Positions 25,513-61,551 of a stretch of DNA of 64,000 nucleotides are shown piece by piece. Numbering within the stretch: the stretch's first letter is position 1; each line of letters begins with the position of its first letter. The DNA comes from an uncultured Rickettsiales bacterium (GTDB taxonomy: Bacteria > Pseudomonadota > Alphaproteobacteria > Rickettsiales > JALZUV01): contig CAZZJS010000001.1 in the NCBI GenBank assembly GCA_964654855.1, positions 17,772-81,771 on the forward strand. The letters are read 5' to 3'. The notes beneath the pieces are model-generated. The model did no database searches, was not told the origin of the DNA, and saw only the letters and a program-made list of their open reading frames with translations. The position numbers and the translations under genes were made by a program.

Positions 25513-27537
25513 TTATTTTAAAACAGATAAAATGCTGGAACGATGATCAGTCCAAAGGGGTGAGTCAGGCGCTGCTTTGAGAGACGTAAAATTCATTTTA
25601 GTAAATTGTTCATCCCAGTGCGAATTAGGCTTTGCCATAAAGATCCACTCTGCGGTGCCATCATAAGAGAATTCAGGGTTATATTCAAAGCGCTTATGGT
25701 AAACGGCCATATTATATTCTTTTGCTAAACGAGCGAGTATGGGGCGCAAATCTGTATGGCGCGCGATAATATTAAATGCGAGTAGACCGTTTTGAGGGTT
25801 TAGCTTGCTAAGATAAATGCCGAGTGCCTCTTTGGTGAGTAAGTGCATAGGGATGGCACTTGAATTAAAAGCATCCAGCACAATTAAATTATATTTCTCA
25901 TTAGATTGCTTCCTGATTTCCAAACGACCATCTCCAAGAATGAGGTTTGGTTTGCCAGGGCAATCACGCAAATAGGTGAAATAGTCAGAGTTTTGTGCAA
26001 TCTCTGCGACGAGCGGATCAATCTCGTAAAAATCGATAATTTGATTTTCTGAAGCCATGCAGGTAAGCATTCCCGTGCCTAAACCAATGACTGCAAAAGG
26101 TTGTTCAAAGAAGCCAGAAGGTGTGTTTTCCATCAAGTTTCGGAGGTTGTGGTTGAGGTATAATTCGTGCCCAGGGAAAGTTGGTTGGTATCCTTGCTTA
26201 GTGCTGCCAATTTCGAGAATGCGCACAAAGAAGGGGGAGGCCTTTTCAGCGACTTTTTTAACACCAAAGAAGTTTCTCGCTTGATATTGCGCTTGGTAAT
26301 CATCGCTTTCTGTCCAAGTGATGATCAGTGCTAAAACAATGCATGAGGTGCTGCCAGCAAAGGCTGCTTTGCGTAGGGTGCTAAATTGGTGATGGTTCTT
26401 GAACCAATAGGTAAATGGAACGCTGAGCGAGAGTATTAGAATGATCGGGTATTCATAAATATCGTTGAATAAATAAGGCGCAATATTGGCGAATAAAGCT
26501 CCCAGAGCACCGCCTAGTGCAAGCCAAAAGTAATAGGAAGTAAGAGCCTCTGGTGCAGGTTTCTCTTTTGCTATTTGGCCATGACAACTAAGTGAAATGA
26601 TGAAGAGACATAGTAGGTGCAGTGCCACTTGCTCCATATAATAATTCTTGGCATAAAAATGCGAAAGAAATGCATAGACGTACCCTGCGAGTAAAAAGAC
26701 GAGAGCACAGATAGGTAAATGAAGGTGTTGTGCGAGGCTGATCCAGCGAGCTGCATTATTCGAAAAGGCGATAATAAAACTCAACAAATACAGTGCTAAT
26801 GGCAAAACCCATAAGAGCGGAATGGTCGCGATATCTGTCGTGATGAAGAGTGTTGTGCTTAAAAAGAGAGCGGATGGAATAAATCCCAAAAACAGGATGC
26901 GGAGGATAGACGAAGAGTTGAGAGCAAAGCTTGTATGTAAGCTCTCTGTTTGCGTTCTGATATGACGTAACTTTAAAGTGGTAAGGGTTAGTAATAGTAT
27001 CAATCCATAGAATAAATAACTCCAAGAAAGCATCTGTTCTTTTAGGGGGAAGAGCCATTCAATAAGAAGAGGATAGCTGAGCAACCCTGCTAAACTTCCA
27101 GCATTGCTAATCGAAAATAGAAAGTAGGGCGAGGTGCCGTTTGCTTGATAGTACCAGCGTTGCAAAAGTGTGGCGTTAGAAGCAAGTAGAAAATAGGGCA
27201 GGCCAACAGTGAATAAAAGGGTAACTACTATCCAATATTCTGGAATTGATTGAGGTAATTGCCCACTATATTGCAGCGATAATGGCAGCGTGAAGATAAG
27301 GGCAAGAAACAATAAGCCTAAATGAAGTTGGCTTTGCCGTTTTGCGGTTAAATAGAGGCTGCTAACGGATGCATAAGCATAGCCTGCCAATAAGAGTATT
27401 TGGAAAAATAATATAGAGGTAACCCATATAGCGGGTGCGCCGCCTACTTGTGGCAGTAAAGATTTCACCAATACCGGCTGAATAATAAAAAGCAGAAACG
27501 AGCCTAAAAATATGGCGAGTGAGAAGAGAGGTGCCAT
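25513..27537 (-). CDS. Fused polytopic membrane (MFS-like) / spermidine synthase-like protein
   Basis: About 400 aa of TM helices are followed by a class-I methyltransferase/aminopropyltransferase-like domain (VIGLGTGMLT, LIVLDAFNSSAIPMHLLTKEA). Confidence 0.75.
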   Translation of the reverse strand: MAPLFSLAIFLGSFLLFIIQPVLVKSLLPQVGGAPAIWVTSILFFQILLLAGYAYASVSSLYLTAKRQSQLHLGLLFLALIFTLPLSLQYSGQLPQSIPEYWIVVTLLFTVGLPYFLLASNATLLQRWYYQANGTSPYFLFSISNAGSLAGLLSYPLLIEWLFPLKEQMLSWSYLFYGLILLLTLTTLKLRHIRTQTESLHTSFALNSSSILRILFLGFIPSALFLSTTLFITTDIATIPLLWVLPLALYLLSFIIAFSNNAARWISLAQHLHLPICALVFLLAGYVYAFLSHFYAKNYYMEQVALHLLCLFIISLSCHGQIAKEKPAPEALTSYYFWLALGGALGALFANIAPYLFNDIYEYPIILILSLSVPFTYWFKNHHQFSTLRKAAFAGSTSCIVLALIITWTESDDYQAQYQARNFFGVKKVAEKASPFFVRILEIGSTKQGYQPTFPGHELYLNHNLRNLMENTPSGFFEQPFAVIGLGTGMLTCMASENQIIDFYEIDPLVAEIAQNSDYFTYLRDCPGKPNLILGDGRLEIRKQSNEKYNLIVLDAFNSSAIPMHLLTKEALGIYLSKLNPQNGLLAFNIIARHTDLRPILARLAKEYNMAVYHKRFEYNPEFSYDGTAEWIFMAKPNSHWDEQFTKMNFTSLKAAPDSPLWTDHRSSILSVLK

Positions 27538-27553
27538 GAAAAATCAAGCGACT

Positions 27554-27829
27554 TTACGGGCAAAAAGGAGGAGGATTCGGAGGGACGCAATTATCGGATA
27601 GAAAACCCATACTTAACGCTTGTTTAGAGGAGAGTACGACCATGGCAGCTCCTCCAGCAGCGGAGTATTTCGTTAGAGCTTTAATGGCTTCACGACGATC
27701 AATCTCATCATCATCGTCAATACCATGCTCTGCCTCAAAATCTGTAGACTCAACCTCGTCATGAAGTGTTTCTTCTATCGGCTCTTCTGCCGATTCAGAA
27801 TCTGAGATGTTATCGTTCATATTGGTCAT
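27554..27829 (-). CDS. Small acidic protein with internal Tat-like RR motif and Cys/Pro-rich C-terminus
   Basis: 91-aa ORF with GAGGA 10 nt upstream of the ATG. It ends 16 nt upstream of the next gene in the same orientation. The sequence reads ...DRREAIKALTKYSAAGGAAMVVLSSKQALS-MGFLSDNCVPPNPPPFCP. Confidence 0.5.
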   Translation of the reverse strand: MTNMNDNISDSESAEEPIEETLHDEVESTDFEAEHGIDDDDEIDRREAIKALTKYSAAGGAAMVVLSSKQALSMGFLSDNCVPPNPPPFCP

Positions 27830-27911
27830 GTGGATGGAATCCTCAAAATAGCCTTACCTTGATACTAGTTTAGCAGCTTCGGGGGTAATGCGTCAAATTG
27901 CAAAAAAGAGA

Positions 27912-30650
27912 CTATAAGGGTTGAGAAAACTTAAGATATTGATTGGGGGTAATAGATTCTATCGTTTGCGGCATTGCTTCGCCACACCAATGAAGATCCA
28001 GTGTAATATCATGCGGTTCTTCAGCGCCTAATCCAAAGAAAAGTCGAGGGTCATTCTGTGCGTTTAACCCATTTGAAGCAAGCCTGTAGCGAGTTTGTAT
28101 TTTTGGCGCCCCATTCACTCGATAAGATAGGGTTGCCTTGGTACCTATAGCATCACGGTTGCATGTTTTTCCATCACCTTTCAAATCCAAGCTCAACCAG
28201 TAAGAATCGCTAACAGATTCATTTTGGTAGAATGATGGGGGGGCGGTCATGCGAGTAACGATCGTATCTAAATCACCATCATTATCAAAATCAGCGAGAG
28301 CTACGGCTTTCGTATTATCTAGCTTCTCCCAGCCGGTGGAATCCGCAACATCCTCAAATTGCGCCTGCCCATTATTCAGCCAGACGCGCTTACGTTCTTG
28401 CGGATAAAGGCACTCGCCGCGCATATCCGGCCAATTATTTGCATAGCCATGCGTATCAGCGGGGGTGAACTCTATCTGAAACATTTTATACACATAATCT
28501 TCACATGCTTTGCTAGGGCTTTGGTCATAGGATTGGTCAATCCAGCCATTCATTTGTAGCAGATCCAAGGTGCCGTCGCGGTTAACATCACCTACCGCAG
28601 CGCCCCAGCCGAAACGATCATGGTTGAAAAGGTTGGAAGCAAAGGCTTGATCAACAAAATTTGCAGCATCGGGGGTAAGGTTTCCTTGGTTCATCCAGAG
28701 CATAGAGCCTTCAGGCACTTCTTTTTTATGCATGTTAGAAACGTAGATATCTTCAAACCCATCGGCATTAAAGTCAGCAAAGGAGGCATTCATTCCACGA
28801 TAAGTATCGTTGCCCAGTTGATGTTTTTTCCATCCGCTAACTTCTGAAAACCGTTCGCCTTTAATATTTAAGAGTAACTTATCAGGGCCGGCTGTATTGG
28901 CAAAATAAAGATCCATCCAGCCATCATTGTTCACATCACCTGCGCCAATATCCAAGGTCCAGCGGGTTTCATCTTCGATACCCCACGGTGCATTATTTTG
29001 TATTTCGTAGCGATCACCTTGGTTAATGAAAATACGATTTTCGCCGCCATTGCGGGCATCAAATGGATTGCGGCGCATAATATTAAGTGGGCGGTTATCT
29101 TCTGCATTTTCAGCTTTGGGAAGGTTAAATAAATTAAGCGGGGTAGGTTCCTCATAACTTGCATGATGGCGAGCGAGTGTGCCGCCCATAATGATATCCA
29201 ACTTACCATCGCGGTTGATATCAAGCACGTTTGCCGTCGCGCTATTCATATAATGATCTAGCCCTTTGGCTTTGGTGATATCAATAAAATCGAGCTGGCC
29301 AGTTTCTGATAGAGTATTTTGTAACAGCAATGGTGTGCCGCCATAACGGGTGAGAAGGAGGTCTTGGTCGCCATCATTATCTTCATCAAACCAGAGTACA
29401 TCCATCGCGACTCCTTCTGACTTTGCGTGATTTCGTAATCTATTGAGTGTACGAATTGGGTGTTTCGTAAATTTGAAATTCCCTTGATTTAAATAAAGTT
29501 GAGTACGATCCTCAGCGCGTTTAAGCGGTAAAGTAAGGAAGATATCAGGTAAACCATCTTGGTTCACGTCACTCACCGCTACTGCATCTCCCATGGAGAA
29601 AAACCATTTTGCGACATGCTGAATCCGTTGATCTGCTTGTTCTAATGTATCGCCTTTTTGAGCGCTAATGCCAGCCGATTGAGCCGTTATTTCTTTCAAA
29701 TGAAAATCAGATTTAGGAAGGAAGGTGTTTGATGAGCTATTGGCAAGTAACTGGTAAAAAGCGATGCTCAATAATGTTATTAACCCAATAGTAAGTGCAG
29801 GTTTTGTTTTGGTTGAAAGGCGTTCGGGAATGGTTTTCAAATCCATCTTCTGCTGCAACCAAATCCAGCGCAGAGCGAAATAAGTAATGCCTGCGTAAAA
29901 GAGGGTGAAGGTGAGTTGCGCCAAATGGAACAGAAAGTCGAAACCGACAATGGCGGCGGCCATACCGACTTGCCCTTTCCAATGTGATGGAGAAGTTTTT
30001 GGGTCAGTCAGCATGAAGTAGGTGAACAGATAAAAGGCAGGATTGCGCAATACGCCATCAATCAGCGCGAGCGGCGGGATGGCGGTATCTAGCACAAAAG
30101 TGCGTAAGTAAAGCTGTATGCCGTAAAAGATCAAGAAGCTGCAGGTGAGCACTAAGCGTGAAACATTGAAGAGGAATACGCTTAAAGCGGTGATGGTGAA
30201 AAAAAATGCCATGACCGCTTGTCCACCCCATTGTGCAGCAGAGGCCGGGCTAATTAATCCATCGGTGATGAGTAAGCATGCAACCAGTCCAAACATACCG
30301 GGGTTGAAGATATGTTTGTCATTCGCGGTGATAAGATATTTAGAGCAAATAGCGATAAAAATGGGAATAGCACCGAGCAAAATAGTATGTGCAAAGTTGG
30401 TTAGAATTGAAAGACCAAGGCAGGTAATAACGGCACTCATCGGAAAGAGAATGCCTTGCCCCGGTCGTAAGATGCGATGCAAGATCATATCAGTGCTGAT
30501 GCCCACCAATAGGATGAAAAAAACCTGTTCAGGTGTTTTGTTAATGCCCAGTAGGCTGATGCCGATAATAAGGAAAATAGCGAGCAACCCAGCGACACGA
30601 ATACGCGGATCGTTCCAGCCATGATAATTATTCCAAGTGAGGTTAGCCAT
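27912..30650 (-). CDS. Fusion protein: RnfD/NqrB-like polytopic membrane domain + FG-GAP/VCBS beta-propeller + ASPIC/UnbV domain (CRTAC1 family)
   Basis: The N-terminal ~330 aa contain KHIFNPGMFG and MLTDPKTSP, which are RnfD/NqrB hallmarks. Seven D-x-N/D-x-D-G-x-x-D repeats follow (DVNQDGLPD, DEDNDGDQD, DINRDGKLD, DVNNDGWMD, DFNADGFED, DVNRDGTLD, DFDNDGDLD). The C-terminal NRDAIGTKATL...DPRLFFGLG is the ASPIC/UnbV motif. The ATG at 30650 is 1 nt after the lnt stop. Confidence 0.85.
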   Translation of the reverse strand: MANLTWNNYHGWNDPRIRVAGLLAIFLIIGISLLGINKTPEQVFFILLVGISTDMILHRILRPGQGILFPMSAVITCLGLSILTNFAHTILLGAIPIFIAICSKYLITANDKHIFNPGMFGLVACLLITDGLISPASAAQWGGQAVMAFFFTITALSVFLFNVSRLVLTCSFLIFYGIQLYLRTFVLDTAIPPLALIDGVLRNPAFYLFTYFMLTDPKTSPSHWKGQVGMAAAIVGFDFLFHLAQLTFTLFYAGITYFALRWIWLQQKMDLKTIPERLSTKTKPALTIGLITLLSIAFYQLLANSSSNTFLPKSDFHLKEITAQSAGISAQKGDTLEQADQRIQHVAKWFFSMGDAVAVSDVNQDGLPDIFLTLPLKRAEDRTQLYLNQGNFKFTKHPIRTLNRLRNHAKSEGVAMDVLWFDEDNDGDQDLLLTRYGGTPLLLQNTLSETGQLDFIDITKAKGLDHYMNSATANVLDINRDGKLDIIMGGTLARHHASYEEPTPLNLFNLPKAENAEDNRPLNIMRRNPFDARNGGENRIFINQGDRYEIQNNAPWGIEDETRWTLDIGAGDVNNDGWMDLYFANTAGPDKLLLNIKGERFSEVSGWKKHQLGNDTYRGMNASFADFNADGFEDIYVSNMHKKEVPEGSMLWMNQGNLTPDAANFVDQAFASNLFNHDRFGWGAAVGDVNRDGTLDLLQMNGWIDQSYDQSPSKACEDYVYKMFQIEFTPADTHGYANNWPDMRGECLYPQERKRVWLNNGQAQFEDVADSTGWEKLDNTKAVALADFDNDGDLDTIVTRMTAPPSFYQNESVSDSYWLSLDLKGDGKTCNRDAIGTKATLSYRVNGAPKIQTRYRLASNGLNAQNDPRLFFGLGAEEPHDITLDLHWCGEAMPQTIESITPNQYLKFSQPL

Positions 30651-30651
30651 G

Positions 30652-32223
30652 CTAGAAATGCTCGTTTTTGTGCAAAATAAAAGCAAACCCTAACAGTAAG
30701 AGCGCAAAGCTGAAGAAGCTAAAGAGTCCGTAGCGGCTATAGAAGGTTTGTTCATTTTGCACGATAGGAATGGCGATATCTTGAAAGCCCTTTTCATGCA
30801 GTCCGATAGAGGTGAGTAATGTGCCATAGCGATCATAAGCAGCGCTGATACCGCTATTTGCAGCACGAATGATGGGCACGCCTTGCTCCACGCCGCGCAT
30901 ACGCGCCATATGTAAATGCTGATAAGGGCCAGCACTTTTGGCAAACCAACCATCATTGGTAATATTGACGAGTAGGTCGATAGGTTGATCAAAAAACGCA
31001 TGACGGCTGAAAATTGCCTCATAACAAATGAGCGAACCAATGTTTAACGAACTATCATCTAATGTAAGGAGCTTCTTTCCTTCGGCAGGCGTAAAATCTA
31101 ACTTTCCGGGGATCACTTTGCGAATGGGCAGAATGCTGCGAAAGGGTACATATTCGCCAAAAGGAACCAAATGGTGTTTATCGTAATATTGAACCTGCGC
31201 TTGGGAGGTAATAGCGGCAAGGCTATTCCATGCCTTATAGTTATCGCGGCTAGAGCCTTCGCCACGAATGGCACCTGTTAGGAGGGTTGTGTTAGGAGAT
31301 AGAAAGCTTGCCAACTTTGCAATCCACTCACTGTCTTTATCTAAATAGTAAGGGAAACTGGATTCTGGCCAGATGACAAGATTTAGTGGTTGCTCACTCG
31401 GCATTTGTGTCATGCTTGTGTAGTCGGTGAATGCCTGTTTTTTGTTCCAATTGCGTTCTTTGGCGACATTACCCTGAACCAATCTGGCTTGCAGATGTTT
31501 TGAATTTTGAGGGAGATCAGAAATGCGCAGGTGGCTCCAACCGCAAATCGCTAGAAGAAGGCAGATGCTGACGCCCACTAAAGCATAACGATACTTCGTT
31601 TGATAGGCTAAGAGAGCGGGTAGGGTGGCGAATAAAACGGTGAGTAAGTTTAGCCCGTAAATGCCAATAAGCGATGCAGGTTGCAGGAATATCTGATTGA
31701 TGGAAAGGCTGTAGCCGATGGCATTCCAAGGAAAGCCTGTGAAAAGATAACTACGTGCGACTTCCCATAAGGCAAAAAGAATCGCAAATAAAAGGATGCG
31801 TGAGCTGATTGCAGAGAAGCGGAATCGTTGCTTAATCAGATGGTAGGTTAGGCTAACTAAACCCCAATAGATGGATAAAATGGAAGAGAGGCCGAGCGTA
31901 GCAAAAGGGATCATCCAAGCGAATCGGGTGGAATCAACGAGGAGAGATAAAGCGATCCAATAAGTGCTGGAAAGGAAAAACCCTAGCCCGAAAAACCAAC
32001 CTGTAAGGAATGCTACCTTCTTCTGTTTCGTATGGTCAGCTAAGATGAATAAAATACCAAAGACTGGGATAAGCAATAGGGTGAAGAAAAAAGGGGCGAG
32101 CGTAAGCATAGCGCCGACACCTATCAATAATAAAAGCAAATAGCGCTTCCAGCTAGATAGGTTAGCGAGCCATTTCAACTTTTGGTTAAGCGGCATCTTC
32201 TCCGTAGCTACCATAATAGCCAT
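30652..32223 (-). CDS. lnt: Apolipoprotein N-acyltransferase
   Basis: Multi-TM N-terminal half plus a CN-hydrolase domain with the Glu/Lys/Cys triad contexts WPESSFPY, YDKHHLVPFGEYVP and SLICYEAIF. The start is uncertain (32223 or 32196); both overlap the wzc 3' end. Confidence 0.85.
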   Translation of the reverse strand: MAIMVATEKMPLNQKLKWLANLSSWKRYLLLLLIGVGAMLTLAPFFFTLLLIPVFGILFILADHTKQKKVAFLTGWFFGLGFFLSSTYWIALSLLVDSTRFAWMIPFATLGLSSILSIYWGLVSLTYHLIKQRFRFSAISSRILLFAILFALWEVARSYLFTGFPWNAIGYSLSINQIFLQPASLIGIYGLNLLTVLFATLPALLAYQTKYRYALVGVSICLLLAICGWSHLRISDLPQNSKHLQARLVQGNVAKERNWNKKQAFTDYTSMTQMPSEQPLNLVIWPESSFPYYLDKDSEWIAKLASFLSPNTTLLTGAIRGEGSSRDNYKAWNSLAAITSQAQVQYYDKHHLVPFGEYVPFRSILPIRKVIPGKLDFTPAEGKKLLTLDDSSLNIGSLICYEAIFSRHAFFDQPIDLLVNITNDGWFAKSAGPYQHLHMARMRGVEQGVPIIRAANSGISAAYDRYGTLLTSIGLHEKGFQDIAIPIVQNEQTFYSRYGLFSFFSFALLLLGFAFILHKNEHF

Positions 32224-34435
32224 AATAACCGTAAAGATTGAGCGCTTCCAGATCGACTTGAGTTAATAAAGAGCCTGCGATTTTATCGGCCACTTCGGGC
32301 GATCGTGTGAGCGCATTATTGATCATATTTTGGTTTGTTTTGCCCCAGTGAGCGAGGAAAATGAAACTATCAATCGAGTCAGCCATCGCGCGTGCATCTG
32401 CAATATTCATAATAGCAGGTAGATCGATGAGAATGATGTCAAAATTAGGCCGAAGCTTAGCGATTAATTCGCCCATTTGGCCAGAACCGATAAGGTTTAG
32501 GTTCGTTGTCGGAGTTTTGCTACCTTTAGCTGGAATAAAAGAAAGGTTTGGCGTGCCGGTTTTATGGCAAATATTATCGATTGCGCTCTCACACTCTTTT
32601 GGACTCAAGCCTTCCATTTCGTAAGCTAGTTCGTAAAAGCCTGTTTCAGCCTTTGGGTAGAGCAATTGAGTTAAGCTTGGGCGACGAAAATCGCAATCAA
32701 TCAATGCCACTTTTGCTCCCGTTTTCGCAAGATGCTTTGCGAGGAAACAAGAGGTGGTTGATTTACCTTCTCCAGGGTTTGCAGAAACAAGCGAAACAGA
32801 TTTGTGTGTTTCATTGGGTGCGCTGAACTTAATGGCCAATTGTGTTGTCCGCATGACTTCAGAGAGAGAGCTAGTCTGCTGGCCTAGCATTTCAGTTATT
32901 TTCTCAAATACGTCTTCCTGAAAGCCTTTCGTAGTCTTTTTATCGCGTGATTTTTTTTTCTTATTGGCTTGTTCTGTTAAGAAATCGACTTGAGTAATCA
33001 TTCCAAGGCAGGTGCGATTTGTTGCTTCTTCAAGCTCCTCTGCTTTACGAATATAGCTATCAAGGCGTTCGCGTAAAAAGACAAGCCCCACACCCAGTAA
33101 AGCACCAAAGACTGAAGATAAAATGAGAATAAGTGGTTTATTTGGCCAACTCGCATCCATAGGCAAGGTCGCATAACTAATTACTCGTCCTTGTATAAAA
33201 GGTGCAGATTGTCGTTGAACTTGCTCGTTCAAGTTATTGAGAAGATTTGTATAGAGATCTTGTAAAGAATTGGCTCCACGCTGTAACTCGCGCAGTTCAA
33301 TTTGATCATGTTGGTCGGTGAAGGAGTTGTCGCTGACAGCTGACAACTCCTCTTGCAATTTCTTCTGTTTTGAAAGTGCAATTTTATACTCATTCTCAAA
33401 CCCTTGAACGATGCGCGTATGTTCTTCTCTCATCAAGTTTTGAATGTCATTGATTTGTTGCTCAAGTGTCGTATAGGCTTGGTGCTTTGTGCCTTGGCCA
33501 CGCCTAATTTTTGCAGATCGTTGTGTTAGATCAATATATTGATTTCGCAAATTATTGAGCACTTTATTCTCAGTAGAGTTGCTGATGATTTTTTCAGAGC
33601 TACCTTCATCTAGAAGACTTTTTAAGTTCTCGTAACGTGCTTTAGCTTGTGCTGTATCAGTGCGAGCAATGATTAAGTTCGTATTTAATTCAGAAAGTTG
33701 TTGTTCATTAATGCTCTCTCGGCGAGGGCTATTAACAATATTTTTAGTTGATTTATACTCGTGAACTTTTTGTTCAGCGACGTTGAGGTCCTCACGTAAT
33801 TTTTCAACTCCCTCAGAAAGCCACTGATTGATCCGTTGTGAAGCCTCATACTGCGTTACAAGCTCTTGCTCTAAATAAACGTCAGCAATAATGTTGGCGA
33901 GGTCTTTCGCTTTTTTTCTGCTATCTGCAGTATAGCTAATATCTAGCACATAGGTGCGCTTGACACGTTTAACATCTAATCCATCTCTAAATTTCTGGAA
34001 GGCCTCTTTTCGGATTGTTTCTTTTTCAAGCTGTTTTGCTTGCTCCGCATTGCCGAATAAAGCTCCTCTAAAGGAGTGTAGAAGTTCATTACGGGGTTGT
34101 TCAAGATTTTGGTATATACTCGCTTTCTCAGCTACTTTTTCGAGCATTCTGCTGGAATGCATAACTTCGATTTGGCTATCAAGGATCAAATTTTCACGAA
34201 AATTCATCATCTGCAGTAAGCGATTAGGCATGACTGCTGATTGGCGCGGATCGATGAGGAGCGAGGTGGTAGCCGTATAAAGTGGCACTGAAACGGTAAT
34301 GTAGAGGAAACCCAGCATAAAGCAGGTAACGCTGCATAAGACGATCAGTTTGCGATGGCGCTGTAAGGCAGCGACGAACTCTCTAATATAGAGCATAGCA
34401 TCGAACTGCTGCTGCGTATCCAGATTATTCTGCAT
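32186..34435 (-). CDS. wzc: Polysaccharide co-polymerase / BY-family tyrosine autokinase (Wzc/GumC-like), copy 1
   Basis: Wzz-type N-terminus with a TM segment, then a long coiled-coil periplasmic region and a second TM segment. The kinase has Walker A SANPGEGKST, CDFRRPSL and Walker B-like IILIDLP. The tail is Tyr-rich (YGYYGYYGSYG). Confidence 0.9.
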   Translation of the reverse strand: MQNNLDTQQQFDAMLYIREFVAALQRHRKLIVLCSVTCFMLGFLYITVSVPLYTATTSLLIDPRQSAVMPNRLLQMMNFRENLILDSQIEVMHSSRMLEKVAEKASIYQNLEQPRNELLHSFRGALFGNAEQAKQLEKETIRKEAFQKFRDGLDVKRVKRTYVLDISYTADSRKKAKDLANIIADVYLEQELVTQYEASQRINQWLSEGVEKLREDLNVAEQKVHEYKSTKNIVNSPRRESINEQQLSELNTNLIIARTDTAQAKARYENLKSLLDEGSSEKIISNSTENKVLNNLRNQYIDLTQRSAKIRRGQGTKHQAYTTLEQQINDIQNLMREEHTRIVQGFENEYKIALSKQKKLQEELSAVSDNSFTDQHDQIELRELQRGANSLQDLYTNLLNNLNEQVQRQSAPFIQGRVISYATLPMDASWPNKPLILILSSVFGALLGVGLVFLRERLDSYIRKAEELEEATNRTCLGMITQVDFLTEQANKKKKSRDKKTTKGFQEDVFEKITEMLGQQTSSLSEVMRTTQLAIKFSAPNETHKSVSLVSANPGEGKSTTSCFLAKHLAKTGAKVALIDCDFRRPSLTQLLYPKAETGFYELAYEMEGLSPKECESAIDNICHKTGTPNLSFIPAKGSKTPTTNLNLIGSGQMGELIAKLRPNFDIILIDLPAIMNIADARAMADSIDSFIFLAHWGKTNQNMINNALTRSPEVADKIAGSLLTQVDLEALNLYGYYGYYGSYGEDAA

Positions 34436-34565: not shown

Positions 34566-35690
34566 TTACCTAAAACGCTGAATCCGGTCTTTATGAAAGG
34601 TAAAAAAATGTTGCCACCCTCTTAGGGTCGTTATTTTTTTTAGGTAATGCTTTCGTTTTTGTGGGTTGGTAAAGAACTGAATGAGGTATCTTTTAAGCCA
34701 AATAAAGCTATCAAAGTATTTTTGTTGAGTGGGGCGACCAAAATTATGTAACGCTTTTTTTGCCCATGTGTTTTTTTCAATGGCGCTTGTCTCTACAAAA
34801 AGGCTTTCTGTTAGAGTATCCAAGCTATCTAAAAGGTCATTCAAATGATGTTTTTCGAATATCTCAGCCGTTTTATTGCGAGTTTTTTGGTCTAATTTTT
34901 TATTAAAATAAAAATGATCGACGCAATGACGCAGGTTTAACAGCTTGCGTCCATAATATTGAGATTCAAGTTGGCAATGAATTAAATGATGCGTGAAGCG
35001 GTCTTGAGGAGAGGGAATAAAAATACCTTCAAAGTGAGCGGAAATTGCATTTCTAAATATATGTGCTGCAGGTAATATTGCATCAGAGTTTTGATCGCCA
35101 ATGCGTTTATGGAGTTCAATACGGAAGGGTAGTTCCCCGCCTTCAATTCCAGGGATATGGTGGTGCTGTTCGAATAATATTTGATCTTTCGTATTGAGGG
35201 ATCCTCCTCTGGCAAGTAGTAGCTCGATTGCACTGTCAATTTGGTTCTCAGGAATCAATATATCTAAATCGCTAAGGAGGCGGTGCGAAGGATCATCATA
35301 ATAAGGAGTTATCATTTCGGCAGCACCTTTGAGGGCAACCGCATTAATACTTTTTTCTTTAAATAATAATCCAAGCGTTTCTAGCTCGTGTTTCGCAGTT
35401 TGGTTGCGTTTTTTATTCTCAGAATGAATAAGTGAAAAATAAAGAAATAAATCCTCTGGAATAAATTCCTGTAACTCAGGGTATTTAGTAAAAGCGGAGC
35501 GGATTAAAGTATGGACTTGGTTGTCGTTTGCTATTTTTGCGAGATGCTGAGGGTCGCTATTTTTAAGGTCATCTTTTAAGTAAGGCGAAAATGTGCCGCC
35601 TATTGCTGCGGATGTAAGGCCAATAACTGCGCGATGAGCGGGCGAGTTGCAAAAAGAATCTAGCAGGCTTATGTGGTGAGTTTTAGGCAT
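34566..35690 (-). CDS. Nucleotidyltransferase family protein (uncharacterised NTP_transf_5 type)
   Basis: ALKGAAEMITPYYDDPSHRLLSDLDILIPE matches the LKG...R.x.DxDxLV signature of this family. It overlaps the upstream kinase gene by 22 nt. Confidence 0.7.
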   Translation of the reverse strand: MPKTHHISLLDSFCNSPAHRAVIGLTSAAIGGTFSPYLKDDLKNSDPQHLAKIANDNQVHTLIRSAFTKYPELQEFIPEDLFLYFSLIHSENKKRNQTAKHELETLGLLFKEKSINAVALKGAAEMITPYYDDPSHRLLSDLDILIPENQIDSAIELLLARGGSLNTKDQILFEQHHHIPGIEGGELPFRIELHKRIGDQNSDAILPAAHIFRNAISAHFEGIFIPSPQDRFTHHLIHCQLESQYYGRKLLNLRHCVDHFYFNKKLDQKTRNKTAEIFEKHHLNDLLDSLDTLTESLFVETSAIEKNTWAKKALHNFGRPTQQKYFDSFIWLKRYLIQFFTNPQKRKHYLKKITTLRGWQHFFTFHKDRIQRFR

Positions 35691-36775
35691 GTTTGAACTG
35701 AATAATCGGATGAAGAATAAGATAGGTTATAAGCTGGTACATGGTTCAGCAATGTTGCTATGGGGATAATAGACGGAGATTTATGATAAGTTCTGCCGCC
35801 AGCTTCAATCAATTGCTGTAAGGCTGTTTCTGGTGAAATTAGGGTTATTTCATTTCTATGCCTCTCTCCAAAATGTGGAAAAATAATCGCAGAAACGGCT
35901 GATGTTTGGCCTAATGGCACGGCATTTCTAATTTGATTATAGGTTACTCCATATCGAGGTGCAGTTGAATTTGGTTCTTCAAACCCTAGCTCCTTTGCTT
36001 CTCTTAGATTTAAAGAACCTGCTTTTAATCCAATCGGGGTTGGGAAAGAAAATACAGCTTTGCCATTGCGATGCAAAGGTAAGACATCGTCAGCCATAAA
36101 GTTAAAGCCTGCAGCAACAAGCCCCGCCGTAAGGGTTGATTTTCCGTAACCGCTTTTCTGGGTAATAAGAAGTGTTTTATTATCTTGATTGGTCGCGCAG
36201 CTCGCATGCAAAATAGCGCCGACGTTTTCCGGATTACATAAATGAGCGGCGGCCTCTCTAAATACTAAGTTACGTGCTAAGTCTATATTACAGCTCCCCC
36301 ATAAGGGTTGTTGATTCAGAAAAACTCCAAATTCATTTGCGATCGAAATAATCTCAATTACAGCAGAAGTCGAGTTGCTTATCTCATCAGAATATGCGGT
36401 AAAAACTTCCTGTATCTGTCGAAATAAATGTTCATCATCGCATCGAATATGCAGGCTGTTATGTTCTGATTTTAGCTGTAGTTGTTGGTACGGTTTGCTG
36501 ATAGGGCGGTAAGTGACGGTTGTGGGGAAGGCTGGTTTTTGGGTATCCAGCAATCCAGCTTCGTGCCATGCTTGTAATATGTCTGCATGGGCAGAGCTCG
36601 AGCGGCCTTCACGCAAATCATGATATAAATCATAGCCATCCTGATTGGATAAAATAATGGCATCCGAAAGAGGGGAGTGAAGAATATAACTGTCTCCCAA
36701 CGGCGTGCATTCCAGTGTGGAAATGCTGCTAGGTTCTAATTTCTGATGAAGGCTCAGGCTCATTAATAGAGTCAT
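35669..36775 (-). CDS. HprK-related kinase (HPr kinase C-terminal-like P-loop) with N-terminal PqqD/RRE-like region
   Basis: P-loop and flanks LITQKSGYGKSTLTAGLVAAGFNFMADDV resemble the HprK catalytic core. The first ~80 aa (YILHSPLSDAIILSNQDGYDLYHDLREGRSS..ILQAWHEAGLL) look PqqD-like by eye. Confidence 0.65.
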   Translation of the reverse strand: MTLLMSLSLHQKLEPSSISTLECTPLGDSYILHSPLSDAIILSNQDGYDLYHDLREGRSSSAHADILQAWHEAGLLDTQKPAFPTTVTYRPISKPYQQLQLKSEHNSLHIRCDDEHLFRQIQEVFTAYSDEISNSTSAVIEIISIANEFGVFLNQQPLWGSCNIDLARNLVFREAAAHLCNPENVGAILHASCATNQDNKTLLITQKSGYGKSTLTAGLVAAGFNFMADDVLPLHRNGKAVFSFPTPIGLKAGSLNLREAKELGFEEPNSTAPRYGVTYNQIRNAVPLGQTSAVSAIIFPHFGERHRNEITLISPETALQQLIEAGGRTYHKSPSIIPIATLLNHVPAYNLSYSSSDYSVQTCLKLTT

Positions 36776-59274: not shown

Positions 59275-61551
59275 TTATCTTTCGGAATAATCTTCGTAAG
59301 TATAGTAACCATATTGGCTGGCTCTATCGCTATCAACCAAAGTTAGAAGTGATCCTACCATTTTATCATGCACCTCTGGTGACCGCTCAAGCGCACGACT
59401 AATGATTTCCCTATCTGTTTTTCCCCAGCGTGTAAGGAAGATAAAGCTATCAACGACATTAGCGATAACACGAGCATCTACGATATGCCCAATAGGGGGT
59501 AAGTCAATAATCACCACATCGAACACTTTTTGTAAATGTCCCACAAGCGCATTCATTTGCCCTGAAGCAATAAGATTTAGGTTATTGATTGAAGTAGCGC
59601 GGCCCTTCGCCGGAATAAAAAAGAGTTTTTGTTTATCTACCTTATAGCAAACGGATGACAGATCGGAGAGCACTTCTTCGCGTGTTTCCGTTCCAAGTCG
59701 AGAAGCAAGTTCATAAAAACCGAGTTCCGCTTTAGGTGTAAACCATCGAGTAAGGCTTGGGCGGCGGAAATCACAGTCAATCAAGGCTACTTTTTTGCCA
59801 GCAAGCGCGAAATGTTTGGCAAGAATACAGGAAGTAACAGATTTACCCTCACCAGAATTAGCAGAGACAAAAGAAATAACCCTATCTCCTTGGTTATCAA
59901 CTCCATCAAATTGTGTGGATAGTTGAATATTACGCATCACTTCAGCGGTTACGCTTGTTTGTGAGTCAAGCGATCGGGTGATTTCTTTAAACGTATTCAG
60001 GTTGAAAGGGATAGAGTTGTCTGCTTTTTGGGTAGATAATAGAGATGGATCGTAGAGGAGTTTTTTATCATCTAACTCTCCACGAGGTAACATACCCAAA
60101 CATGTGCGTTTAGTGGCGCTTTCTAAATCTTCAGTTTTCCAAATAAAACGATCTAGTTGTTTTAAGATCAAGATCAGCGCAATTCCTAAGGTCGTACCGA
60201 AAATTAAACCTGCGAGTAAAATAAGATTCTTTTTCGGCCAGCTGGGAGAGCTGGGCTCCATAGCAGAGTTAATGATGCGTGCATGAACCTGCGGAATGGA
60301 TTGTTGTTCTGTTTGCTCGTTAAACGTATCAAGCATTTTTGTATAAAGGGTGCGTGTGGATTGAGCGCGTCGTTGTAGTTCACGCAGTTCAATTTGGCTG
60401 CGTTGATTGACAATAGAAGTGTTACGAACTTTGTTGAGCTCTGTTTCGAGCGCTTTTGTTTTAGATTGTGCAATCTTGTAAGCGCTATGATAGCCAGAGG
60501 ATAACCGCTTATATTCATCAATAATGATGGCTCTAATATCACCCATTTGCTGAGAGAGGTTACGATAAGCTTGGTGATTTTTGCCTTGTTTACGGCCAAT
60601 TTCAGTTGCCCGACGTGCAAGTGCAATATGCTCATTACGTAACTTCGTAATAATGCCGTTTTTGAGCGTATCGCTCGTTATGATATTCGTGTTTCCTGAT
60701 GCTAAAATATTATCGATTGATTCGTGCTGAGCCTTTGCATGAGCCGCTTCCGTACGTGCTTTACTAAGGTTAATATTAAGCTCGGAGAGTTGTTGATCGG
60801 AAATTGAAATATGGTTAAATTGCTGCAGAATATTGTTTTTCTCCTTATAGGCTTCGACGGCTTTTTCAGAGGTGGTTAGTTCTTCTCTTAGCTTATCTAG
60901 TCGAACCTTTAGCCAGTCATTCGTGCGCTGAGATACTTCATAGAAAGACTCAAGTTCATCTTCTAAATAAGTTTCTGCGATTAAGTTAGCTCTGTAAGCG
61001 GCTGTTTTAGGGCTTCCAGATTGATAGCTAATTTTGAGTACAAAGGCTTGATCAACACGCTCAACTTTAAGGCCACGGCGAAATGCATGGAAGCGTGCAT
61101 TTTTAACTAATTCGAGCTGTTCTTCAGTATTTGTATTGTTTTTTCGTCCAAAAATTTTGTTTTTGATAGAGCTAACAAAATCGTTTGCTTGAGGTGCAGA
61201 AAGATTTTCATATAAATTAGCGCGTTGAGCCGCTTTCTCTAATAACTTATTGGATTTAATTACTTCGATTTGGCTATCTAGGACAAGTTTTTCTTTAAAG
61301 CCCAGATAGTTGGTGACATCAGGTAGAGCGCTTTGGAGTCTTGGATCGATTAGAATAGAGGTTGAGGCTGTGTAGCGAGGCGCTGCGACGCCGATGTAAA
61401 TAACGCTGAGGGCTACACCACCGAGAACACAAAGAAAAAGCAACTTAGAATAGCGGTGTAAAATTGCGATTGTCTCTTGGAAAGAAATGAGATTGTCGAA
61501 CTCAAAACCTTGCTCATCATGGGTCGAAATTTGTGTTTGTACGTCTGACAT
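59275..61551 (-). CDS. wzc: Polysaccharide co-polymerase / BY-family tyrosine autokinase (Wzc/GumC-like), copy 2
   Basis: Same architecture as copy 1: Walker A SANSGEGKSV, CDFRRPSL, VVIIDLPP and a Tyr-rich tail (QYGYYTYEDY). By eye it is roughly 40-50 percent identical to copy 1. Confidence 0.9.
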   Translation of the reverse strand: MSDVQTQISTHDEQGFEFDNLISFQETIAILHRYSKLLFLCVLGGVALSVIYIGVAAPRYTASTSILIDPRLQSALPDVTNYLGFKEKLVLDSQIEVIKSNKLLEKAAQRANLYENLSAPQANDFVSSIKNKIFGRKNNTNTEEQLELVKNARFHAFRRGLKVERVDQAFVLKISYQSGSPKTAAYRANLIAETYLEDELESFYEVSQRTNDWLKVRLDKLREELTTSEKAVEAYKEKNNILQQFNHISISDQQLSELNINLSKARTEAAHAKAQHESIDNILASGNTNIITSDTLKNGIITKLRNEHIALARRATEIGRKQGKNHQAYRNLSQQMGDIRAIIIDEYKRLSSGYHSAYKIAQSKTKALETELNKVRNTSIVNQRSQIELRELQRRAQSTRTLYTKMLDTFNEQTEQQSIPQVHARIINSAMEPSSPSWPKKNLILLAGLIFGTTLGIALILILKQLDRFIWKTEDLESATKRTCLGMLPRGELDDKKLLYDPSLLSTQKADNSIPFNLNTFKEITRSLDSQTSVTAEVMRNIQLSTQFDGVDNQGDRVISFVSANSGEGKSVTSCILAKHFALAGKKVALIDCDFRRPSLTRWFTPKAELGFYELASRLGTETREEVLSDLSSVCYKVDKQKLFFIPAKGRATSINNLNLIASGQMNALVGHLQKVFDVVIIDLPPIGHIVDARVIANVVDSFIFLTRWGKTDREIISRALERSPEVHDKMVGSLLTLVDSDRASQYGYYTYEDYSER

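Follow-up and report, generated by a model that had tools for sequence, protein, structure and literature searches.

Among the described relatives of the gene pair reported here, the tailoring enzymes of lasso peptides are the only ones to have been studied experimentally. The HprK homologues PadeK and PsmK phosphorylate the C-terminal Ser of the lasso precursor (PMC8498205), and PsmN, a protein of family PF14907, is required for adding one or two hexoses to the phosphate (PMC6993621). The systems concerned, those of paeninodin and pseudomycoidin, use PqqD-like B1 proteins as guides. The HPr-rel-A system of NCBIfam is defined in the database and its function is unknown; it consists of HprK-related kinase A (TIGR04352) and a PqqD family peptide chaperone (TIGR04353), with a PF14907 gene as neighbour. 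A further set of HprK-like proteins bears the label ScmC (PF27840), a name that stands for the SynChlorMet cassette, and that cassette has radical SAM/SPASM enzymes. Here we describe an HprK-related kinase gene and a PF14907 nucleotidyltransferase gene in a stretch of 64,000 nt (the window, to which all unprefixed coordinates refer) from the genome of an uncultured Rickettsiales bacterium (contig CAZZJS010000001.1; genome G000, 1.92 Mb, 99% complete).

The kinase open reading frame (ORF; 35669-36775, minus strand, 368 aa) and the nucleotidyltransferase ORF (34566-35690, minus strand, 374 aa) overlap by 22 nt and were found where an earlier note on this DNA had placed them. We propose, with a probability of roughly 0.55, that the pair is a member of a widespread, uncharacterised three-part module, comprising a precursor with a twin-arginine leader, a kinase that docks on it through an RRE (the recognition element of RiPPs, peptides made by ribosomes and modified after translation) and a PF14907 nucleotidyltransferase, that this module is a fused sister of HPr-rel-A, and that the cognate precursor is a 91-aa ORF of the same gene string. 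Support comes from domain homologies, intact catalytic residues, gene linkage, the membership of the 91-aa ORF in a leader family, and the joint presence or absence of kinase and peptide within the genus. The features concerned are the following.

35669-36775, minus strand: fused gene (368 aa) of an RRE-like domain, a middle region and an HprK-like P-loop kinase (ORF; weak TIGR04352 and PF07475 matches; AlphaFold2 model with Foldseek; family profile).
36548-36718, minus strand: shortened PqqD/RRE-like domain, residues ~20-76 (alignment gap, AlphaFold2 secondary structure, family profile, PF05402 in relatives).
35678-36223, minus strand: HprK-like kinase catalytic domain, residues ~185-366 (residues invariant across 11-15 homologues; alignment with HprK/P).
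36134-36151 and 36086-36091, minus strand: P-loop G209-T214 and D229-D230 within the kinase domain, which also holds H190.
34566-35690, minus strand: PF14907 (NTP_transf_5) nucleotidyltransferase gene (374 aa; 97.7 bits; conserved residues).
35262-35270, minus strand: D141-x-D143 motif of the nucleotidyltransferase, conserved among kinase-adjacent homologues.
27554-27829, minus strand: 91-aa candidate substrate (leader hidden Markov models, HMMs; conservation; synteny; ribosome-binding site).
27626-27718, minus strand: leader match in the 91-aa ORF, residues 38-68 (leader HMM).

The PqqD, kinase and nucleotidyltransferase activities of HPr-rel-A recur in the window in the same order, the kinase being of the same superfamily and having identical catalytic residues, but PqqD is a separate protein in HPr-rel-A, whereas in the window it is fused to the kinase and shortened. 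The window kinase scores 57.2 bits against TIGR04352 (cut-off 200), over its C-terminal half only (profile positions 97-276), and has no match to TIGR04353 (cut-off 35), although a PF14907 gene does adjoin it. Canonical HPr-rel-A loci, verified by TIGR04353 scores above the cut-off (54-63 bits at L064 and L066), carry a gene for a twin-arginine-signal protein of ~200-275 aa directly upstream of the PqqD-kinase-nucleotidyltransferase genes in eight of the eight examined; the peptides beside fused kinases, at 50-130 aa, are smaller. The canonical kinases form a separate clade in the kinase tree (support 100/100), and the window kinase lies outside it, in a large sister clade of ~380-aa fusions. 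The likeness to HPr-rel-A named in the earlier note holds for the nucleotidyltransferase and kinase parts and, at family level, for PqqD, but the equivalog cut-offs are not reached and the locus belongs to a sister clade.

With the lasso tailoring systems the window shares an HprK-like kinase, a DxD nucleotidyltransferase and, at family level, an RRE homologous to TfuB1 and TbiB1. It differs from them in its twin-arginine-type leader, in the lack of a C-terminal Ser, and in the placing of the RRE, which is joined to the kinase and does not serve a leader peptidase. A lasso cluster was considered and rejected, with no match to the B2 peptidase (PF13471) in the 99%-complete genome and no cyclase identified in the string. 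Distant homologues of the window kinase carry the ScmC label together with PqqD, but the window kinase has no precomputed PF27840 match, and no radical SAM/SPASM enzymes adjoin the pair, in contrast to the SynChlorMet cassette. Particular to the window locus are the shortened RRE, the distance of the peptide gene and a dedicated lnt paralogue, all discussed below. Our literature search found no paper on the present cassette or on the reading of a twin-arginine leader by an RRE.

The connection of the pair to a peptide was approached through the genes that adjoin related kinases. At 18 of the 22 fused-kinase loci outside the window's genus, one to three small ORFs bearing a conserved leader of twin-arginine type lie within 1.6 kb of the kinase, often abutting it (those at L050, L051, L057, L059 and L068 were found only afterwards, by HMM). 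Locus L004 has a 67-aa leader ORF 23 nt upstream of the kinase (...SIQRREAMRKMGSYGAYVAPAMLALLYS...), L049 an 81-aa ORF that abuts the kinase start, L069 a 50-aa ORF (...DRDRREALRTVGKAAVYVAPAVIAMLSS...) and L068 three tandem copies (...SRREAMIRLAKYTAPAMLALLLS...), while L070-L075 and L078 hold one to three copies each of an RRxFL..CGKFA..TPPA..LLLS type. When a leader HMM was run over 594 kb of locus DNA, all matches below E 0.01 adjoined a kinase. These small peptides, the 91-aa peptide of the window and the canonical upstream proteins matched no Tat-signal family and no other family of Pfam or NCBIfam.

Two leader HMMs were then searched against the host genome, taken as its full set of 32,450 stop-to-stop frames of 30 aa or longer: a broad one, made from 17 kinase-adjacent peptides of which none came from the window's genus, and a narrow one, made from three RREA-type leaders only (L004, L049 and L069). 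Both ranked the 91-aa ORF first. The narrow HMM gave it E 2.4e-5, the next frame standing at 0.11, and the broad HMM gave E 0.067, aligning it from the acidic run through RR to ...VLSS, with a partial match in a non-genic frame as runner-up (E 0.14). The product of the ORF begins with an acidic N-region, continues with a leader of twin-arginine type (R45-R46) and closes with the short tail SMGFLSDN-C81-VPPNPPPF-C90-P; a GAGGA ribosome-binding site stands 10 nt ahead of the ATG. Two other assemblies keep the ORF at 69-71% identity, and its conservation is strongest between the RR motif and the C-terminal C-x7-8-C-P. Within the genus, kinase and peptide are both found in G000 and G002, and neither is found in G001 (98% complete) or G003 (86%). 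The mini-peptide that the earlier note had put forward as a substrate thus exists at 27554-27829 and is the genome's only match to the kinase-adjacent leader family, and by homology and co-occurrence it is the probable target of the kinase/nucleotidyltransferase pair. A classical lipoprotein reading of the 91-aa peptide was not adopted, since the L-S-D-N preceding C81 is no lipobox; a relative of the peptide has L-S-I-C there.

The type of leader also follows the phylogeny of the kinases. The kinases of the window, its congener and L002 group with that of L049 (support 99/98) in the kinase tree, and this clade then joins L004, L059, L068 and L069 (80/87); the latter group contains every RREA-type locus, and the RRxFL-type loci fall elsewhere.

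Several features of the leader family were observed in passing. Tandem leader genes with differing tails occur three at a time at L068 (1206-2084) and L071 (10739-11647), which looks like a precursor family in the course of diversifying. At L057 (10946-11164, minus strand) the twin arginine of one kinase-adjacent leader is replaced by K-R (QRKRELIKKFGNYAVVAPIGMYVLMS), which argues that the leader motif is read by something other than, or besides, the twin-arginine translocation (Tat) machinery. Several RREA-type peptides stop 1-9 residues past an AxA-like site (L069 2563-2715, …SSTKAMAR; L004 9676-9879, …SRNAAASPV), so that cleavage by signal peptidase would leave almost nothing of them, an odd outcome for a true secreted protein.

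In both enzymes the catalytic residues are intact. An AlphaFold2 model of the full-length kinase (from 11 homologues) has a mean predicted local distance difference test score (pLDDT) of 90.9, and Foldseek against the PDB ranks ATP-dependent phosphoenolpyruvate carboxykinase (ATP-PEPCK) first (E 1.6e-8) and HprK/P next (E 3.4e-4), which is the outcome expected for this P-loop fold; the PF07475 match, at 20.8 bits, is below the cut-off of 33.3. Residues H190, G209-x-G-K-S-T214 (the P-loop), D229-D230 and K251 are invariant among the 11-15 homologues aligned, and the family profile places them opposite the H...GxxGxGKS...DD segment of HprK/P proteins with solved structures. The motifs SGYGKSTL (residues 208-215) and ADDV (228-231), from which the kinase core had earlier been likened to HPr kinase, are confirmed, and the fold and the alignment bear that likeness out. 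Because the fold is HprK/PEPCK-like and the catalytic residues are invariant, the kinase looks catalytically competent. The nucleotidyltransferase, for which NTP_transf_5 had likewise been named, matches PF14907 at 97.7 bits, well above the cut-off of 31.2, and is the sole copy in the genome. Its residues K121-G122, R137, D141, D143, H194, H234 and H238 are conserved over 29 distinct kinase-adjacent homologues (K121-G122, D141 and D143 in 28-29 of the 29). Its DxD motif is the counterpart of the D134/D136 pair of PsmN, mutation of which inactivates that enzyme (PMC6993621).

The N-terminus of the kinase was assigned through its family. A profile of 25 N-terminal domains (A4), with that of the window as its first row, matches TfuB1 (6jx3_B, E 1.2e-7), TbiB1 (5v1u_A, E 2.1e-7) and PqqD (3g2b, E 0.026); 17 of the 25 match PF05402 individually, and, among homologues of the same length, the N-termini of P0008, P0009, P0010 and P0013 score above Pfam's threshold for PqqD. 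With a full-length family profile, the N-terminus matches TbiB1 and the C-terminus HprK/P. Relative to a 53%-identical congener, the window copy has lost ~19 residues, or 57 nt, in frame between R58 and S59 (near 36601/36602), a loss that removes helix alpha-2. Two AlphaFold2 models agree on strands at residues 22-26, 29-33 and 40-43 and helices at 45-55 and 61-72, with no third helix; the mean pLDDT is only 66 for the isolated domain, and the full-length model reaches 86-97 in this region. The segment may be dispensable, since the family members P0006 and P0022 also lack it. The N-terminus is accordingly best described as an RRE by descent, shortened, for which leader binding is predicted. 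The fusion of a PqqD/RRE-like domain to the kinase, which the earlier note had assigned by eye, is upheld for the family, and the comparison with PqqD/RRE profiles that it suggested succeeds with the family profile, but the window copy alone matches no model and its fold has two helices instead of three.

The course of events that we infer is predicted throughout, from the binding of the leader through the two chemical steps, their order and the residue that they modify to the export of the product. The precursor gene would have been relocated 7.8 kb downstream inside the same co-directional accessory string. The RRE-like domain would dock on the leader near D-R-R-E-A-I-K and the hydrophobic stretch that follows it, whereupon the HprK-like domain would use ATP to phosphorylate a Ser or Thr hydroxyl of the peptide. 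The nucleotidyltransferase would then attach a further group (a hexose or a nucleotidyl unit) to the phosphate, as PsmK and PsmN do on pseudomycoidin, and the decorated peptide would be exported afterwards; TatC is encoded in the genome.

Cassettes of an HprK-related kinase, PqqD and PF14907 are common, yet they have had no known substrate or product, and a conserved leader-peptide partner makes their unknown function directly testable. Should the leader serve as RRE tag and export signal alike, RiPP-style leader recognition would be joined to Tat-type export, and a phospho-linked decoration would, if the proposal is true, be added to the known modifications of secreted bacterial peptides. For genome mining, the window copy would imply that the docking domain tolerates the loss of a helix and that the peptide gene can lie far from the enzymes.

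Downstream of the pair, the gene order in the window is wzc, lnt, FG-GAP/UnbV, the 91-aa peptide and a membrane/SpdSyn-like gene, all co-directional with the kinase and nucleotidyltransferase.

25513-34435, minus strand: co-directional genes lying between pair and peptide and beyond the peptide (family matches, synteny).
32186-34435, minus strand: wzc-like gene (family match).
30652-32223, minus strand: extra lnt paralogue (family match).
27912-30686, minus strand: membrane and FG-GAP/UnbV protein (family match).
25513-27537, minus strand: membrane/spermidine-synthase-like (SpdSyn-like) protein, 674 aa (family match).

In a congener (a metagenome-assembled genome labelled Rickettsiales bacterium) wzc is missing and the order is otherwise the same. 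Because its string lacks wzc only, this exopolysaccharide gene looks, on synteny, like an insertion between the nucleotidyltransferase gene and lnt and not like part of the module. A second full-length lnt lies outside the window (G000:C1:446808-447992) in the usual ybeY-corC-lnt context; because that copy occupies the housekeeping position, the window lnt is by its context an extra paralogue, tied to the FG-GAP/peptide/SpdSyn string. A functional tie of the string genes to the pair is suggested by their synteny. Consensus promoter and terminator scans returned fewer sites than shuffled sequence and were uninformative but for one site before the peptide gene. The operon ending in the mini-peptide that had been proposed earlier therefore stands as a co-directional string, but not as an established operon, a promoter-like site preceding the peptide gene. 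The window contains two wzc-like genes, at 32186-34435 and 59275-61551. The SpdSyn-like protein has 42-43%-identical paralogues at G002:C42:20783-22792 and G001:C1:1011927-1013948, of which G001 lacks kinase and peptide; only a 62%-identical orthologue travels with the string.

A number of results weigh against the 91-aa ORF as the substrate of an RRE-guided kinase. The match to the broad leader HMM is modest (13 bits), and the peptide gene lies 7.8 kb downstream of the kinase (5.6 kb in the congener), beyond the ~1.6 kb seen elsewhere. In the 82-nt gap before the peptide gene is a promoter-like site (27867-27896, minus strand: TTGACG, 18 nt, TAAACT, with a TG extension), so the peptide may be transcribed on its own. 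The serines of the tail are Ser73 and Ser78, and neither is C-terminal as it is in the substrates of the lasso kinases. On the side of the enzyme, residues 1-130 of the window kinase have no PqqD match in Pfam or NCBIfam (TIGR04353 included) even at E 10, and PF05402 has no match anywhere in the host genome; Foldseek with the isolated domain returned nothing from the PDB below E 0.6, TbiB1 standing at rank 13. Having lost helix alpha-2, the shortened RRE-like domain may bind poorly or not at all. Lastly, the metagenome contig L018 has lnt-peptide-SpdSyn with no kinase within 10 kb.

These last arrangements bear most on the possibility that the 91-aa product, exported or lodged in the membrane, belongs by function to the lnt/FG-GAP/SpdSyn group as a mini-protein, that its shared strand with the kinase reflects the packaging of an island, and that the true substrate is another or has been lost. 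The kinase-free string of L018, the promoter-like site and own ribosome-binding site of the peptide gene, the status of the window lnt as a second copy, and the presence of TatC, with which genuine Tat export is possible, would all fit such a protein. We nevertheless consider it unlikely, in that leader HMMs whose kinase-adjacent peptides all come from other genera rank the 91-aa ORF first in the genome, the kinase clade tracks the leader type, and members of the genus have either both kinase and peptide or neither; moreover, L002, another contig from the sample of L018, has a related kinase pair, adjoining wza/wzy.

It is more doubtful still that the pair serves the exopolysaccharide machinery, acting by phosphorylation or nucleotidylylation on a sugar, on a lipid carrier or on a Wzc/Wza-type protein and not on a small peptide. 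The pair does sit between divergent wza/wzy and wzc in the window, a 38%-identical relative shares the wza-wzy-GT-AsnB-ABC neighbours, and Wzc- or Wza-like genes occur within 10 kb at L051, L052, L057 and L067. The pair of the congener, however, is without wzc, the cassettes of L049, L004 and L003 lie in unrelated contexts (methionine synthase, FimW and P450/SDR, respectively), and the partners that are conserved are an RRE domain for peptide docking and a neighbouring leader ORF. The three-gene cassette behaves as a self-contained unit for which exopolysaccharide neighbours are frequent, not obligatory. The least probable alternative is decay of the module in this lineage, with the kinase uncoupled from its peptide by the deletion in the RRE and the pair left functionless or repurposed: the ~19 residues lost relative to the congener, the lack of a PqqD signal of its own and the pLDDT of 66 for the isolated domain agree with decay, but the gene keeps an intact frame and invariant catalytic residues, the full-length model holds at pLDDT 86-97 there, and P0006 and P0022 are also without the segment, which makes it look dispensable.

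The three-part module with the 91-aa ORF as precursor admits a tentative extension that we hold to be possible, though clearly short of an even chance. The twin-arginine-type signal could be dual, acting in the cytoplasm as a docking tag for the RRE-kinase and nucleotidyltransferase and afterwards in export, and the Cys-x8-Cys-Pro mini-peptide could then be processed by the lnt paralogue and its neighbours into an exopolysaccharide-associated, surface-anchored product.

The kinase architecture extends well beyond this genus. A profile search of 1.84 billion cluster representatives recovered 2,038 proteins with E<1e-30; among the 150 best matches, most span the whole 380-aa fusion. In a phylum sample, a kinase match at E<=1e-20 was found in 72 of 401 genomes; full-length fusions account for eight of the 72, the window's genome included, and the remainder are mostly of the ~300-aa canonical form. 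A class-level sample has the fusion in 12 of 401 genomes. Of 46 kinase ORFs counted (45 distinct loci), 42 have the nucleotidyltransferase as a companion, and by crude ORF calls it is on the same strand and within 200 nt in 35. Standalone PqqD proteins were sought in the fetched loci with jackhmmer, and two were found. At L074 (8852-11411), two fused kinases stand in tandem.

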